Shown here: positions 28,587 to 32,993 of the stretch, in pieces
Numbering within the stretch: the first letter of the stretch is position 1
Layout of the letters: the number at the start of each line of letters is the position of its first letter
NCBI GenBank assembly: GCA_000182565.2
Contig: KQ257450.1
Strand: one strand, 5' to 3'
DNA length: 64,000 nucleotides
DNA from: Spizellomyces punctatus DAOM BR117
Taxonomy: Eukaryota
Position numbers and translations under genes: made by a program
Notes under the pieces: generated by a model
What the model was told of the DNA's origin: nothing
Seen by the model: only the letters and a program-made list of their open reading frames with translations
Database searches by the model: none

Positions 28587-29285
28587 TCAAGGTTCTCGAT
28601 ACACCTTCTGCTCCGTGTGATCCAATTCCAAAATCTCTTGAATGGCTTGCAACACAAGCTTTATGTGTGCTTTTATTTTTGATGCCGTCTCCGTGTGTTT
28701 GTCAGCCGCTCTGAGGAAACCGTGGGGTCAGTGAGATACTGAGAATGAATGAAAAGAAACAGAAACTGACTTTAGTAATGATTTCTCCTTTTCTCCAATG
28801 AAAGTAACGGCTTCGTCCAGCGTTAGTTCAACGTGGTAGCCTGCTCCTACTTTGACGTAGATCCTCGATGTATCTGGCCTACAAAAGCAAAACATTGTCC
28901 AGGAGAAAGGAATGAGGAGAAAGTAGGAGAACTACATACACTTTGGCTTGCATGAAAAACTCGCATCCAACATCCATCATGGTTTTCAGCTCGTTGAGCT
29001 TTTCATTTCTGAGCAGGTCAATCTGGTTACGCAACTTTAGGCTACAACGACTATGTGTAAGTTCACAGGCCTACACCCAACCGGTAAACAGTCGGCAGAG
29101 AATGTTGCCCAAGGGTGTGAGCAAAACGCTACGCACTATTCAGCAATGGTCTCGTAAATCTTGTCCCGAGCGACCACAGCCTTTTGTAGGTCTACTCGTA
29201 GTCGCTCATTTACAAAGCGTTCGTATCTTTCTATTTGTTTTGTTTTGTCTCGTGAGCCGGACTCTGTGAGGTTTGGCTTGTCCAT
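28587..29285 (-). CDS. UXT: Prefoldin alpha-like protein UXT, multi-exon
   Basis: [58 protein letters not shown]. Confidence 0.9.
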
Positions 29286-30152
29286 GGTTGCTGATTTCAG
29301 TTGAACTGATCTGTCCTATTCCCATCCCACTAGATCTGTTATGAGCTGCATCCCCACAAATTCACGTGACAGATTTGGTGAAGGTTTTGAAGGGACAGTG
29401 GAGCTTTCCATTTGATTTGGTGAAGGCATCTACTTGGGATATCTGCTACAAAGGGATGGTCGGACGGGCCGACTGGACTATCTAGCTGGATATGTCATGT
29501 TTTAAAGCAAGCAGCCCCGTCACAATGAAGGCTGATCGTGCAATCATGTGCATGTTTTCTGTACATGAACGAGATGTGCCATGGGCGAGTCAAAAGTCAT
29601 TGCAGTCAGAGGTGCACAAGGCAATGTTGTTTCTTCAGAGGCGGGGGTCTTACGTCCCACTCGGAAACACGGACCAATGCTTTTCATCATCCTGCAACGA
29701 ACTCTGCTCAAACCCACGGCACTCTCCCGTTTAAACCAAGCAGTTTCGCTCAACCACTTCTTAGTGCAGTGCCAACAGCCGAATGTAATTTATCGCCGAC
29801 AGTGAACTAAAAAGTCGTTGGAAACAACGGGCTGTATTCCTCTGCGGGATGAAGAGTAAAACGCAAAGGTTGACTTTGGCTGCACACGATGCCTATTTAT
29901 ACGCTTTGAATAGCCAATCAGAGCGCTAGAAGTTTTTTTGTCACCAAGCCATCTCGCGCCACAAGCAATATTTCGTATTTAAAGCAACTTTCTTTTGAAC
30001 ATTTGGTTGATACTCGACAGCTCGGCTTGCACCGCACACAACGCTCTCAAATAGGTCGACATAGCAATAGTGCCATGGTCGACCAAGCTGTCAGCGTTTG
30101 TGCGGGTTGATATCAATTGGTAAGTAGATTTGGCCCATGCAAGGATTGCAGT

Positions 30153-30262
30153 GTATGAATGATGATCAAAAGGCATTTGGTTGTACGGGGCCCCCGCGTT
30201 ATGTGGGGTTACTCCGGATGATAGTAACACCCGAGCTACCTAATCTTTCACCTCTGACATAC
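30153..30262 (+). ncRNA. Intronic box C/D snoRNA, snR13-like
   Basis: Terminal stem GTATG/CATAC, box C ATGATGA (30159-30165), box D CTGA (30254-30257); AGGCATTTGG and GCTACCT are both complementary to conserved 25S rRNA AAGGUAGCCAAAUGCCU. Confidence 0.75.
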
Positions 30263-30413
30263 GACATGCATGATTTGTGCTCATGTTGACTACAAACTTT
30301 TTGCTGATCTGTTTGTTTGCATTCAGATATCTTCGACTGTCTGCACGGAGCTGCCGTTCGGGACAAGTGTACGTCGCGAGATCTAAAGGTAAGCATCAAA
30401 TTCTTGAACTTTC

Positions 30414-30523
30414 TGCGGAAATAGAGGTTGCAGGGATTAGAATTAGATGATAGGGACAGCTTAGACTTCAAAAATGCTGATTTCATCTGGGTGAACAATC
30501 AATGAGCAATCTCTATTTCCGCA
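30414..30523 (+). ncRNA. Intronic box C/D snoRNA, snR64/U74-like, with non-canonical boxes
   Basis: 18-bp closing stem (30414-30431/30506-30523); guide GATAGGGACAG (30449-30459) complementary to 25S CUGUCCCUAUC; D' CTTA, C' ATGCTGA; C GGGATTA and D ATGA. Confidence 0.65.
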
Positions 30524-30739
30524 CTGTTTTTACGTCCTCTTGGTTTGTCAAATACTAATTTCGTCTGTCGTATACGATAGGTAAGCCAGTAGTAAATAGC
30601 AGATAGGTGTGATCCTTTATTTGTTTAATAAATATTCAATTATTATGAATTATACGGTTGCTCTCGTGAAAAGGTTCATTCCGCAGCCCATTATGCGGTA
30701 TTGGTGAATAGCTTGAGTCCTTCGTCGAAGGAGTTGCTG

Positions 30740-32993
30740 TTATGGAATGGGAGATTCCTCAACTCTAGCCTTTTTCTCTGATATCTGGATCGGCTCCGAT
30801 GATGGGCGCTTGTTTATATCGCTGCAATGGAGATGCATACGTCAAAGCGTCAGGTACTGTCTCAAGGGCACAGGATAATGAAGTTAAGCCAAGCCAAGTC
30901 CAAGATTGTGCGCTTACCTGTTGGAGTCAACTGGCGTAGCGAATGCCACTTCGGCCGGTAACCGAAAGCTTATGCACAACATCTCCTTGTTGGGGGCTAC
31001 ATTTCGTACATCATGTACAAGCTCGACATTGTCCCCAAGGGATGCGCCAATTACACTTTCCACTCGCTGTAGGCCACGAAGTTAGCCCTTGGTTCCCTTA
31101 GGAATACGAAAAATGGTGCTTACTTTTATGACATCAGCTCTCGCATCCACCTCGCGTGAAAAGCAATGGCAATGTATCATGGGAAGCCGATCATTTGAAA
31201 CCAAATCTTGGCGACCGTACAAGAACCCCCGGAAGGCGTCTGAACAGATTAAAAGTTAGCACTCGGTAAATAGACCTTAAGAATATCCGTCCTTACCAAG
31301 GAACTCAATGGCTGTTGCGGGCAAATTCATGATATAATGATCGAACCATCGGAATACTGGCTCTTCCCCTACTGGGCCTTTTCCATTCTCCTTGACTTCA
31401 GGTGCTGTCTCAGTGTGAGGTTTAGTTGATGAGTCTAAAGCGTCGTTGGAGGCCGCTTTGGTAGTTTTGGGCTTCTTTGGCGGTGGAGCTTTACTTTCAA
31501 GCTCCCGCCACACGCTTGGCGTATTTAGGTCTTTTAAAGATTGTCGAATGAACTCTCTCCCGTCCATGTTGTAGGGTCTTACCAGGTGTTCCACCTACGC
31601 GAGCGATTCCATCAACGCTGATTAGCTCTAACGTCACAGAGGGTACAATCTTTGATAAAAAAGATCACCTTGTTAAGCCGCACGTTCTCACATAGATATT
31701 GGTGGCTGGCCGGATTCAAATCGTTCGCAAAGACAATGCAATTCTTTTTCTTAGCGGCCGGTAACGCATATGGCCCAACACCGGCGAACACGTCGCATAT
31801 CAGTTGTCCAGGCCGGAACGCTTTTACAATGCGGTTGTGCTCGGCTTGCAAGCGTGAATTCCAGTAGACCCTTGAAAAATCGAACCGGAAGCGACAGTCC
31901 CCTTCTTTCTAGATGCCGCAAGATTATGGCCTGATGAGAACCGAATTCCTTCTCTGAGTATCAGCTGCTTATGATGGACTAACCAGCTCTGCCATCATAT
32001 TGTTTTCTCCTGCTAGCAATTCCATTTGGAAAAATCGGAACGTATGGTCGATATTCCCCGTTTTGTTGACAATCGTGCGCAAGTTTTTGTTTTTCTGCAG
32101 AGAAGAGAGCATCGTTTCAGTTCCAGTCCGCTCCAACCAGGTGCAGTAGCAGTCTTGGTACTCACGTCAAGTAGGACTTGACCAATAATACTTTTATATG
32201 GGATGTGTTGATCACGGAGGTTGAGATGCGCTGCACAGAATTTGTATCTTAGCCCGGTCATCGGTATTCAGGTTAGCAGAATGATTGAGCGACCCTCACC
32301 AATGTGTCCAACGGATTCAAATGCACCTGGCACTTCTAATTCGTCTGGTAGGATGGATCTTAACACTTGATCTATGATACTGTTAGATGAGATTCCAAAA
32401 GAGTAGAAGCCGCTTGAATGGGGTCACAAACCTGCTGTCCAATAATCGTAGTCAAGATCCAGCTTATAACGAGTCACTTCTGCCCCCTCCTTCTTAGCGA
32501 ACTCGTCCACGGCAGGCGGAAGAGCGTCTATGTAGGAGACATTAATCAGGCGGGCTGACCAGGGGAACGTTTGTCTTTATATCGTATCGTCTCATCCGAT
32601 ATATGGAGAACCACCCATCATATGTGTCTCTAACTATCGCTGTTTCCAAGTAGAGTAACAGCAACCTACCCTTCGACGTGACGACCTCAGGGTTCAAGAG
32701 AACTAACCGCCTCACAGCTTTCTTGTCTGCGCCTTTCGCAATCTCCTCTGGATCTTCTATGATTGCTCGAAGCCTCGGAAGCTCCAGAAGCGGGCTATAA
32801 GACGATTGAGTAACCGCTGCTACCGTCGCAAATATGCAAGGGTTCGCTCTTACCCGCCCTTTAACTCAACCATGGCACGCCTACATGTTGAGGCAGGAAC
32901 ACGCAGGGCGACCAAGTCCAAACTCTTCCGAAAAAGTTCCCTGTTGAGAGTTACCAACCCTTTATTCGCTGGTGGTGATATCGTTGCGGACAT
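30740..32993 (-). CDS. TRM5: tRNA (guanine-37 N1) methyltransferase Trm5, multi-exon
   Basis: [82 protein letters not shown]. Confidence 0.93.

Follow-up and report, generated by a model that had tools for sequence, protein, structure and literature searches.

The gap of 1.4 kb between the prefoldin/UXT and TRM5 genes of Spizellomyces punctatus DAOM BR117, although 'empty' in appearance, holds three predicted snoRNAs and a short, spliced transcription unit. It lies within a 64-kb stretch of contig KQ257450.1, the whole of which is referred to here as the window. The spliced unit is on the plus strand, both neighbouring genes being on the minus strand, and it carries a box C/D snoRNA in each of its two introns (snoRNA 1 and snoRNA 2). 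The third snoRNA, which is U18/SNORD18-like, is found upstream of the UXT ATG (29285), in the same gap but outside the plus-strand host. It has a 6-bp stem and a 14-bp Watson–Crick guide to LSU position 640, and minus-strand RNA-seq depth peaks at 16–19 over it. A filter for canonical C and D boxes plus a guide, applied to both strands of the window, gave only two matches, both of them in this gap and one of them snoRNA 1. The coordinates of all features are collected in Table 1.

Evidence for the host transcript comes from raw 60-nt cDNA RNA-seq reads labelled as the same species (run X8), which were placed on 2.4 kb. Because the neighbouring minus-strand genes yield first-mate-on-minus reads, the first mate was taken as sense, and the reads then describe a plus-strand transcript running from approximately 30029 to approximately 30655. 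The original prediction, made from the sequence alone, had placed two introns of about 200 nt here, and junction reads fall exactly at these positions. The joint for intron 1 (30118>30326, cut +1, plus strand) is given by 14 reads at 9 starts, and 16 loose-end reads at 30119 run on into the first letters of exon 2. That for intron 2 (30386>30579, cut +2, plus strand) is given by 4 reads at 2 starts, and 15 loose-end reads at 30394 run on into the letters of exon 3, the exact cut being ambiguous because the same 8 nt recur at its two ends. Exon 1 has the deepest coverage within the 2.4 kb (169–384 on the plus strand, compared with 0 in the bin 29891–29971), and toward the 3' end depth passes from 68 (30539–30619) to 29 (30620–30700) and then to 0.2. 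Minus-strand depth over the neighbouring genes is 1–43. The introns are covered at 29–31 (intron 1) and 39–59 (intron 2), and unspliced precursor could account for both. The promoter-like and polyadenylation signals that had been noted in the sequence were also recovered, with TATTTAAA about 45–60 nt upstream of the pile-ups of read starts (30029–30046). The host is a gene of the Pol II type, presumably transcribed by that polymerase. No reads of a metatranscriptome run (X9) were placed at the locus. A single unspliced 202-nt contig of uncertain nature (X1) corresponds to it over 198 nt with 2 differences, which is too close to inform on conservation; neither X9 nor X1 was counted as evidence.

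Table 1. Features of the gap between UXT and TRM5 (positions in the window)
Feature	Position	Strand	Description
U18/SNORD18-like box C/D snoRNA	29602..29695	-	RF00093 match at 34.8 bits (E 9.2e-05; gathering score of 41 not reached)
Promoter-like signals	29914..29983	+	CCAAT at 29914; TATA-like TATTTAAA at 29976-29983; putative promoter function
Exon 1	30029..30119	+	5' end approximate; read pile-ups at 30029, 30032, 30033 and 30046
Intron 1	30120..30326	+	207 nt, GT..AG; GTAAGT start, branch-like CTGAT at 30304, CAG end
snoRNA 1	30152..30263	+	box C/D, snR13 / N. crassa CD1 type (predicted), in intron 1
snoRNA 1 terminal stem	30152-57/30258-63	+	6 bp, 5 Watson–Crick and 1 G-U
snoRNA 1 box C	30159-65	+	AUGAUGA
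snoRNA 1 D' guide	30171-30184	+	
snoRNA 1 C'-like box	30218-24	+	AUGAUAG
snoRNA 1 extra base-pairing element	30234-41	+	AGCUACCU, 12 nt ahead of box D
snoRNA 1 box D	30254-57	+	CUGA
Exon 2	30327..30388	+	62 nt; limits set by both read joints
Intron 2	30389..30580	+	192 nt, GT..AG; GTAAGC start, branch-like CTAAT at 30555, TAG end
snoRNA 2	30414..30523	+	box C/D, snR64 / U74 / N. crassa CD36 type plus second guide (predicted), in intron 2
snoRNA 2 stem	30414-31/30506-23	+	18 bp, single G-U
snoRNA 2 C-like box	30433-39	+	GGGAUUA
snoRNA 2 D' guide	30449-59	+	GAUAGGGACAG
snoRNA 2 D' box	30460-63	+	CUUA
snoRNA 2 C' box	30474-80	+	AUGCUGA
snoRNA 2 D guide	30488-30500	+	UGGGUGAACAAUC
snoRNA 2 D-like box	30502-05	+	AUGA
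Exon 3	30581..30655	+	AATAAA at 30627-32; 3' end approximate, estimated from a partly filled bin

Guide complementarity was assessed on the rRNA of a fungal-type rDNA contig (L091), an unrelated contaminant that comes from another organism than this one. The contaminant rDNA contigs given by an ITS4 primer scan extended no further than about 2,250 nt into the LSU, as judged from the listed coordinates, and so ended short of the targets; full rDNA units were found with two rRNA segments taken from Liu 2009. Equivalences between Neurospora crassa and yeast sites follow Table 1 of PMC2780460 and a table of PMC5699541. The offset between the two numberings is 38 for the pairs 2242/2280 and 2299/2337 and 42 for 2904/2946, 2906/2948 and 2917/2959. 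The sites of the D' guides of snoRNA 1 and snoRNA 2 are 47 nt apart in one region of 25S rRNA, so that the expectation of complementarity to the same 25S domain is borne out on this contig.

A closed C/D-type structure had been predicted for each intron, and in intron 1 it is present as described, with canonical boxes and a 6-bp terminal stem. The fold of snoRNA 1 has no significance (z +0.44), as is usual among C/D snoRNAs. Its guide forms with LSU GTAGCCAAATGCCT a duplex of 14 bp with 3 G-U pairs, of which the core is 11 bp with 1 G-U. The yeast snR13/N. crassa CD1 family is characterized by a D' guide to GCCAAAUGC (Am2280/81 in yeast; Am2242 in N. crassa) and by a conserved element that pairs with the adjoining AGGUAGC, and snoRNA 1 has both. 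Comparison by eye finds the guide core GCAUUUGG identical in CD1, as is AGCUACCU, which there likewise lies 12 nt before box D. CD1 has been cloned and verified by northern blotting (PMC2780460), and PMC3116282 lists snR13 as one of the snoRNAs whose 'extra base-pairing' is conserved. On these sequence likenesses, snoRNA 1 is the counterpart of yeast snR13 and N. crassa CD1 and a predicted guide for 25S A2280/81. By pairing with 25S GUAGCCAAAUGCCU, its D' guide would specify 2'-O-methylation of the equivalent of yeast A2280/81, with AGCUACCU supplying the extra base-pairing of the snR13 type. The degeneracy of its D' box (UGUA or GUAC), a property shared with CD1 (UAGA/AGAG), leaves the choice of A at this site ambiguous. 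Compared with CD1, snoRNA 1 is about 30 nt shorter in its internal region. The 3' end of snoRNA 1 also contains a 14-nt match to 18S rRNA, which is unexplained.

In intron 2, the predicted closed structure stood as regards the stem, which is 18 bp long, but not as regards canonical terminal boxes. The intron folds with z -4.55, and none of 200 shuffles folds equally well. The C-like box agrees with RUGAUGA at 5 of 7 positions and has G at position 2, where U is normally conserved; the D-like box agrees with CUGA at 3 of 4. Internal AGAUGAUAG and CUGA, which had probably been meant as boxes C and D in the original prediction, are more likely part of the guide and part of the C' box, respectively. 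A reading of these two motifs as boxes C and D', in which the guide would end in AAAAAUG, was rejected on comparison with CD36 and with the homologue L102 described below: AUGAUAG shares positions with the C2337 guide, and CUGA lies within the C' box UGCUGA. On the rRNA of contig L091, the D' guide forms an 11-bp Watson–Crick duplex with LSU CTGTCCCTATC and the D guide a 13-bp one with GATTGTTCACCCA; in a shuffle control for the guides of snoRNA 2, a perfect run of at least 13 occurred in 11 of 2000 cases.

The D' guide GAUAGGGACA, directed to CUGUCCCUAUC, is common to snoRNA 2, yeast snR64, U74, CD36 and Drosophila Me28S-Cm2645 (Cm2337 in yeast; Cm2299 in N. crassa), and the fifth-nucleotide rule leads to the first C after UGU, the same C as in the snR64/U74/CD36 family. 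CD36 has the same arrangement GAUAGGGACA-N-CUUA, and its guide-plus-D' string equals that of snoRNA 2 at 14 of 15 positions when compared by eye. As far as guide and D' box can tell, snoRNA 2 corresponds to yeast snR64, human U74 and N. crassa CD36 and is a predicted C2337 guide, in which the D' guide and the CUUA that follows it would direct modification to the C2337 equivalent. It departs from the family in its terminal boxes, its 18-bp terminal stem and the presence of a second guide: where snoRNA 2 has this guide, CD36 has the extra-pairing region UAGUAGAU and no A-loop guide.

The second guide, which lies one nt before the terminal AUGA, fits the A-loop at U2921 over 13 bp. By the fifth-nucleotide rule its target would be the A-loop U that corresponds to U2921 of yeast and U2552 of E. 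coli, which is the second U in GAUUGUUC. This U is universally conserved; in yeast, snR52 guides its methylation and Spb1 acts as a backup. snR52 and the second guide of snoRNA 2 thus share a predicted target nucleotide, but snoRNA 2 has no guide of the 18S A420 type, and the likeness is one of function only, with no sign of common descent. The N. crassa counterpart of snR52, CD42, has no A-loop guide in PMC2780460, and the comparative table of PMC8817022 lists no human guide for the equivalent of U2921.

Both guides recur at equal spacing in a snoRNA on an AT-rich metagenome contig (L102), the only metagenome match for snoRNA 2. Three extra guide letters, the position of C' and the 1-nt spacer are likewise common to it and snoRNA 2, as are a long stem and a box of the form NNGA; the spacings were taken from motif positions, MAFFT having mis-registered the 5' halves. 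Box C of L102 is canonical (AUGAUGA) at the place of GGGAUUA, whereas its D box, CGGA, is non-consensus too and in the matching place. L102 scores 27.9 bits, below the gathering score of 48, on RF00530, a Drosophila family with the same GAUAGGGACA guide in its consensus. A bacterial chromosome (L103) that matches the guide-pair pattern has no C box, stem or C'; it was set aside as a coincidental match and provides a negative control.

With G at position 2 of the C-like box and AUGA in place of CUGA, snoRNA 2 could be a decaying copy. The host and snoRNA 1 would then be functional and the intron 2 element a snoRNA pseudogene that forms no snoRNP, with drifted C/D boxes and a stem that is splicing baggage; the insignificant 18.5-bit match to plant snoR64, which is all that Rfam gives, would be in keeping with this. 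We consider such decay unlikely, since both guides are intact and form perfect duplexes, the stem is kept with a single G-U, and the distant homologue L102 also has a non-consensus D box. Moreover, the two box changes together restore a Watson–Crick pair (U-A for G-C) and leave the G.A/A.G/U.U core in place, and RNA-seq depth over intron 2 is not below that over intron 1. In a functional snoRNA 2, GGGAUUA and AUGA would form the terminal k-turn, with the tandem G.A and the U.U kept and U-A replacing G-C, and the 18-bp stem would clamp it.

A broader proposal can be made tentatively. Possibly snoRNA 2 belongs to an unrecognised, old dual-guide fungal lineage (C2337 plus A-loop U2921), in which non-consensus boxes (D as AUGA or CGGA; C as GGGAUUA here) are tolerated by way of the long stem and the co-varied k-turn pair, and the gap, with the divergently placed U18, might be a small snoRNA island served by one bidirectional promoter; we regard this as worth proposing but would not yet rely on it. 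snoRNA 2, which combines an snR64/U74 guide with one for A-loop U2921, would illustrate the reshuffling of guides between snoRNA families and the extent of C/D box drift that is possible where the k-turn is supported by a long stem. Both these families and the switch to an A-loop guide may already be catalogued in the supplements of 'The fungal snoRNAome'.

An Rfam covariance search, proposed earlier as a check on the locus, was run and gave no matches at gathering thresholds in the whole window. Between 29800 and 30800 no match to the snR13, snR64 or SNORD74 families was obtained even at E up to 10; the matches there to sR35 (14.9 bits), plant snoR64 (18.5 bits) and a Tetrahymena H/ACA family are at chance level and are not treated as evidence. 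All three snoRNAs are below the gathering thresholds, and the Rfam models for snR13 and snR64/U74 do not recognize their counterparts here. For a comparable family, snR76, Rfam has one model based on Saccharomycetales sequences and another based on Pezizomycotina sequences, according to PMC5824354. A paper on the ncRNAs of A. fumigatus does not mention snR13, snR64, snR52 or U18. The expectation that protein-centred annotation would miss the host was upheld, and the locus provides a read-supported example of a gene left out by Rfam-based annotation as well. For the annotation of filamentous fungi, long introns flanked by tiny exons that lack an ORF can serve as the signature of a snoRNA host.

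Taken together, the observations make it very probable that the unit at approximately 30029–30655 is a non-coding host of the UHG/GAS5 kind, whose only evident products are two intronic C/D snoRNAs of the snR13/CD1 and snR64/U74/CD36 types. A spliced snoRNA carrier of this description, on the plus strand, lacking an ORF and with one C/D snoRNA per intron, is what had been predicted; guide and architecture assign each snoRNA to a known family. Splicing frees the two introns, a step seen in the reads; after debranching, exonucleases would trim each intron to the core protected by the snoRNP, as in the known pathway for intronic snoRNAs. The spliced exon RNA of about 230 nt is probably a by-product.

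That the function lies instead in this RNA itself, whether as a regulatory lncRNA or as an mRNA for a micropeptide, and that the snoRNAs are passengers, seems to us highly improbable. The depth of exon 1 might be read in its favor but fits a 5'-biased library, because reads accumulate at the start and carry short unmatched prefixes. A scan of the exons (30029–30119, 30327–30388 and 30581–30700) agreed with the earlier view that they lack a real ORF: the longest closed ATG ORF, from 30074, has 11 codons, and an 18-aa ORF is open at the arbitrary 3' end of the exon set. Such an ORF is tiny; no homologue of the host gene was located, and only one was found for snoRNA 2. The exons of known fungal and animal snoRNA hosts are unconserved (section 4 of PMC2780460). 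Least credible of all, and disfavoured, is a by-product of a bidirectional U18/UXT promoter or an antisense RNA to the TRM5 3' end with C/D motifs arising by chance, for although the host starts about 230–280 nt from the likely minus-strand start and its 3' end overlaps TRM5 minus-strand coverage (30620–30700), splicing is precise, cloned N. crassa snoRNAs have corresponding guides and accessory elements, and both of the window's canonical C/D candidates lie here.

Comparison with known hosts places the gene in an established class. Like mammalian GAS5 and UHG, it is spliced, has a polyadenylation signal and no meaningful ORF, and carries its snoRNAs in introns, one to each. GAS5 hosts U74, which we take to be the human counterpart of snoRNA 2. 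A 5'TOP start and turnover coupled to NMD are features of the mammalian GAS5/UHG hosts; the start region here, GCACCGCACACAACGC, has no pyrimidine tract of the 5'TOP kind. The host is also far smaller than GAS5 or UHG, with 3 exons, and its exons have no sequence relationship to theirs. Yeast snR13 is an independent gene, whereas snoRNA 1 is intronic. The biology of the host is itself not new. A non-coding host of this type is present, as predicted, but the kind has been known in fungi since UHG-like hosts, clusters I–V, were described in N. crassa (Liu et al. 2009, PMC2780460). As that source describes them, each of their introns contains a single box C/D snoRNA, their splice sites are canonical and their exons have short ORFs only, and they were missed by genome annotation, all of which holds for the S. 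punctatus gene. The arrangement of the snoRNAs is different: the N. crassa loci of CD1 and CD36 are separate, on chromosomes III and I respectively (Table 1 of PMC2780460), whereas here their counterparts are brought together in one host.

The stretch flanked by a prefoldin-domain (prefoldin/UXT) gene and TRM5, both on the minus strand, holds a plus-strand gene whose RNA is transcribed and spliced. Reads from X8, a raw RNA-seq run bearing the same species label, were mapped to 29000-31400, with about 6 in every 100 of the run's reads examined; 1801 mapped, 1482 of them at ≥99% identity. The first mate was taken as sense because both minus-strand neighbours are covered by "first mate on minus" reads. 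Plus-strand depth is 0 at 29891-29971, 169 and 384 in two exon-1 bins, 29-31 in intron 1, 39-59 in intron 2, 74 around exon 2 and 68 around exon 3, and it falls from 29 in 30620-30700 to 0.2 further on. Plus-strand reads with short unmatched prefixes pile up at 30029, 30032, 30033 and 30046. Only two joints are reported in 29000-31400, both on the plus strand with GT..AG ends: 30118>30326, which skips 207 nt (14 reads at 9 starts), and 30386>30579, which skips 192 nt (4 reads at 2 starts). Loose-end reads at 30119 (n = 16) run on into exon 2, and those at 30394 (n = 15) into exon 3. Because joints and loose-end reads agree, the introns are exactly those named in the original prediction, which had also seen no real ORF in the exons; the longest closed ATG ORF of the spliced RNA (exons 30029-30119, 30327-30388 and 30581 onward) is indeed 11 amino acids.

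The 8-nt string AGGTAAGC occurs on the plus strand at 30387-30394 and again at 30579-30586, at either end of intron 2, so that the read joint of this intron can be placed at several positions; the repeat also makes the start of exon 3 a second GTAAGC donor-like site. The 3' ends of the host and of TRM5 overlap at 30620-30700, where the convergent transcripts give bin depths of 29 and 23.

Features of the host gene, its candidate snoRNAs and their surroundings
Feature	Position	Strand	Detail
Prefoldin-domain gene (PF02996)	28728-28895	minus	domain match; gene ATG at 29285
U18/SNORD18-like box C/D snoRNA	29602-29695	minus	Rfam 34.8 bits, E 9.2e-05, gathering score 41
CCAAT	29914	+	sequence motif
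TATA-like TATTTAAA	29976	+	sequence motif
Intron 1 ends	30120; 30326	+	GTAAGT; closing CAG
snoRNA 1 terminal stem	within 30152-30263	+	6 bp
snoRNA 1 box C	30159-65	+	AUGAUGA
snoRNA 1 predicted duplex	30171-30184		LSU GTAGCCAAATGCCT; 14 bp, 3 G-U
snoRNA 1 C'-like box	30218-24	+	AUGAUAG
snoRNA 1 predicted duplex	30246-30259		SSU TGTCAGAGGTGAAA; 14 bp Watson-Crick, takes in box D
snoRNA 1 box D	30254-57	+	CUGA
Branch-like CTGAT	30304	+	upstream of intron 1 acceptor
Intron 2 ends	30389; 30580	+	GTAAGC; closing TAG
snoRNA 2 putative D' guide	30449-63	+	GAUAGGGACAG then CUUA; resembles CD36
snoRNA 2 predicted duplex	30449-30459		LSU CTGTCCCTATC; 11 bp Watson-Crick
snoRNA 2 predicted duplex	30488-30500		LSU GATTGTTCACCCA; 13 bp Watson-Crick
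Branch-like CTAAT	30555	+	upstream of intron 2 acceptor
AATAAA	30627	+	sequence motif
TRM5 methyltransferase gene (PF02475)	31612-31851	minus	domain match

Judged by its sequence, the intron-1 RNA (snoRNA 1, 30152-30263) is a box C/D snoRNA with every mark present. A filter combining RUGAUGA, a CUGA 45-170 nt on, a stem of at least 4 bp and a guide of at least 10 bp to rRNA yielded two candidates only on both strands of the 64 kb, snoRNA 1 and a minus-strand RNA at 29606-29690. snoRNA 1 and Neurospora crassa CD1 have the guide core GCAUUUGG in common, and both show a degenerate D' box, a variable internal region and an identical AGCUACCU, 12 nt upstream of box D in each. CD1, which has been cloned and seen on northern blot (Liu et al. 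2009, PMC2780460), is the snR13 counterpart and guides 26S Am2242 (PMC2780460, Table 1; duplex in Additional file 4). Passages of Van Nues et al. 2011 (PMC3116282) count snR13 among snoRNAs whose conserved "extra base-pairing" region overlaps the guide target; AGCUACCU of snoRNA 1 is complementary to AGGUAGC immediately 5' of the target, a pairing that would fit that description. Minor X8 variants occur in its GC-rich internal hairpin (30199 T>G, 8/59 reads; 30201 A>T, 3/59; 30211 A>T, 3/60) and may reflect differences between strains or structure-induced errors of reverse transcription.

The intron-2 RNA (snoRNA 2, 30414-30523) is built on an 18-bp inverted repeat (30414-31/30506-23, one G-U) enclosing 74 nt, with a fold z of -4.55 that was equalled in 0/200 shuffles. 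Its GAUAGGGACAG-CUUA matches the string GAUAGGGACA-U-CUUA of N. crassa CD36, the counterpart of snR64, U74 and snoR44, which guides 26S Cm2299 (PMC2780460). Beyond CUUA comes AUGCUGA, a one-change variant of the C' box; 7 nt later stands UGGGUGAACAAUC, which a single A separates from AUGA, and the stem's 3' arm follows. GGGAUUA stands one A after the 5' arm. GGGAUUA and AUGA are read as putative terminal C and D boxes, between which established k-turn geometry would allow a k-turn with tandem G.A/A.G and U.U, the usual G-C becoming U-A.

A metagenome scan with the two guide cores of snoRNA 2 and a gap between them matched one contig, L102 (GC 0.30 versus 0.47 for the window). Here the 11-nt stem shows, by eye, one mismatch, the site of GGGAUUA is occupied by a canonical AUGAUGA, the D' and C' boxes are CAGA and UGUUGA, and a 1-nt spacer and CGGA precede the stem. 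Three further guide letters (UCU) beyond the scan pattern are common to both RNAs, and the motif-to-motif distances, window/L102, are 16/15, 11/11, 15/13, 11/11 and 16/16. L102 scores 27.9 bits on RF00530 (Me28S-Cm2645; threshold 48) and carries a U18-like RNA (23.3 bits) about 300 nt upstream of its snR64-like RNA. One bacterial chromosome also carries the guide-core pattern but none of the additional features, which shows what chance looks like. In snoRNA 2, AAUUAGAUGAU (30441-30451, +), immediately 5' of the C2337 guide, is complementary to LSU GUCAUCUAAUU (11 bp, 1 G-U), which lies 35 nt upstream of that guide's target within the snR75-targeted region, and could be extra base-pairing; L102 lacks this element.

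Eukaryotic rDNA for target prediction was taken from contigs filed under bacterial assemblies. Both introns were searched for duplexes, unbiased, against L091, a fungal-type contaminant contig and not this organism's own rDNA, which holds a complete unit (SSU 1801 bits, 5.8S, and an LSU of 3103 bits interrupted by a group I intron). On L091 the CTGTCCCTATC site lies 47 nt downstream of the GTAGCCAAATGCCT site, in keeping with the shared 25S domain originally proposed for the two guides. Perfect runs of at least 13 arose in 6/2000 shuffles of snoRNA 1, 11/2000 of snoRNA 2 and 7/1162 110-nt tiles across the window; single rRNA matches are therefore suggestive, not proof, and the guide matches draw their weight from position beside the boxes and from homologues. 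Five from AUGA, the 13-bp guide reaches the second U of GAUUGUUC, which is N. crassa U2879 because the CD17 duplex sets the first G of GGAUUG as G2875 (PMC2780460). The N. crassa/yeast offset here is 42 (2904/2946, 2906/2948, 2917/2959; PMC2780460 and portions of PMC5699541), which therefore gives yeast U2921, described in portions of PMC11121408 and PMC5699541 as the A-loop site at which snR52 directs Um formation and Spb1 serves as backup. Likewise, with an offset of 38, N. crassa 2242 and 2299 correspond to yeast 2280 and 2337.

The 3' end of snoRNA 1, which takes in box D and some of the terminal stem, can pair without a mismatch over 14 nt with L091 SSU 893-906, a run reached in 1/2000 of its shuffles; the same 18S stretch (Um893) is the target of the N. 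crassa CD22 D guide, and protein binding and 18S pairing at this box D are mutually exclusive. Eukaryotic rDNA units, complete or partial, lie within many bacteria- or archaea-labelled assemblies among L001-L101 (L091, L097, L070 and L089 included), for example in a Nostoc assembly contig and in a Bryobacteraceae MAG contig that has tandem rDNA with an LSU group I intron; such units are contaminants of the reference collection.

The U18-like snoRNA, upstream of the prefoldin/UXT ATG, has AUGAUGA, D' CCGA and CUGA boxes, a 6-bp stem and a guide, UUGGUCCGUGUUUC, with 14 Watson-Crick bp to LSU position 640. Minus-strand X8 depth peaks at 16-19 over it versus 1-7 over the coding part, and no minus-strand joints are reported over 29000-31400; the snoRNA may be intronic, part of the 5' UTR or a unit of its own.

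In essence, the host is probably transcribed from the TATA-like promoter, its RNA is shown here to be spliced, and by analogy with the known intronic snoRNA pathway we infer that the excised introns are debranched and trimmed to a snoRNP-protected core. snoRNA 1 is predicted to direct Am at the A2280/81 equivalent, whilst snoRNA 2 is predicted to direct Cm at the equivalent of C2337 and, probably, Um in the A-loop. Most likely the RNA of the joined exons is a by-product.

The finding is real, and the original reading of a non-coding host with two intronic C/D snoRNAs was sound. Neither an snR13/snR64-type pairing in one host nor a combined C2337 and A-loop guide was found in the literature examined, in a search not aimed at these exact combinations, and the main text of "The fungal snoRNAome" does not mention snR13 or snR64. 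A comparative table in PMC8817022 gives snR52 in yeast, CD25 in Dictyostelium and none in human as guides for the A-loop site; for CD42, the N. crassa snR52 counterpart, no A-loop guide is given (PMC2780460), and CD36 has none. In N. crassa, 45 of the 55 C/D snoRNAs lie within introns, each in an intron of its own, and five cluster hosts have short ORFs only, like UHG and gas5 (Liu et al. 2009, PMC2780460). Only snoRNA 2, with its two guides and weak boxes, might repay more work; the host is of a type already known from fungi, another example of the UHG-like hosts of N. crassa with a different pair of passengers.
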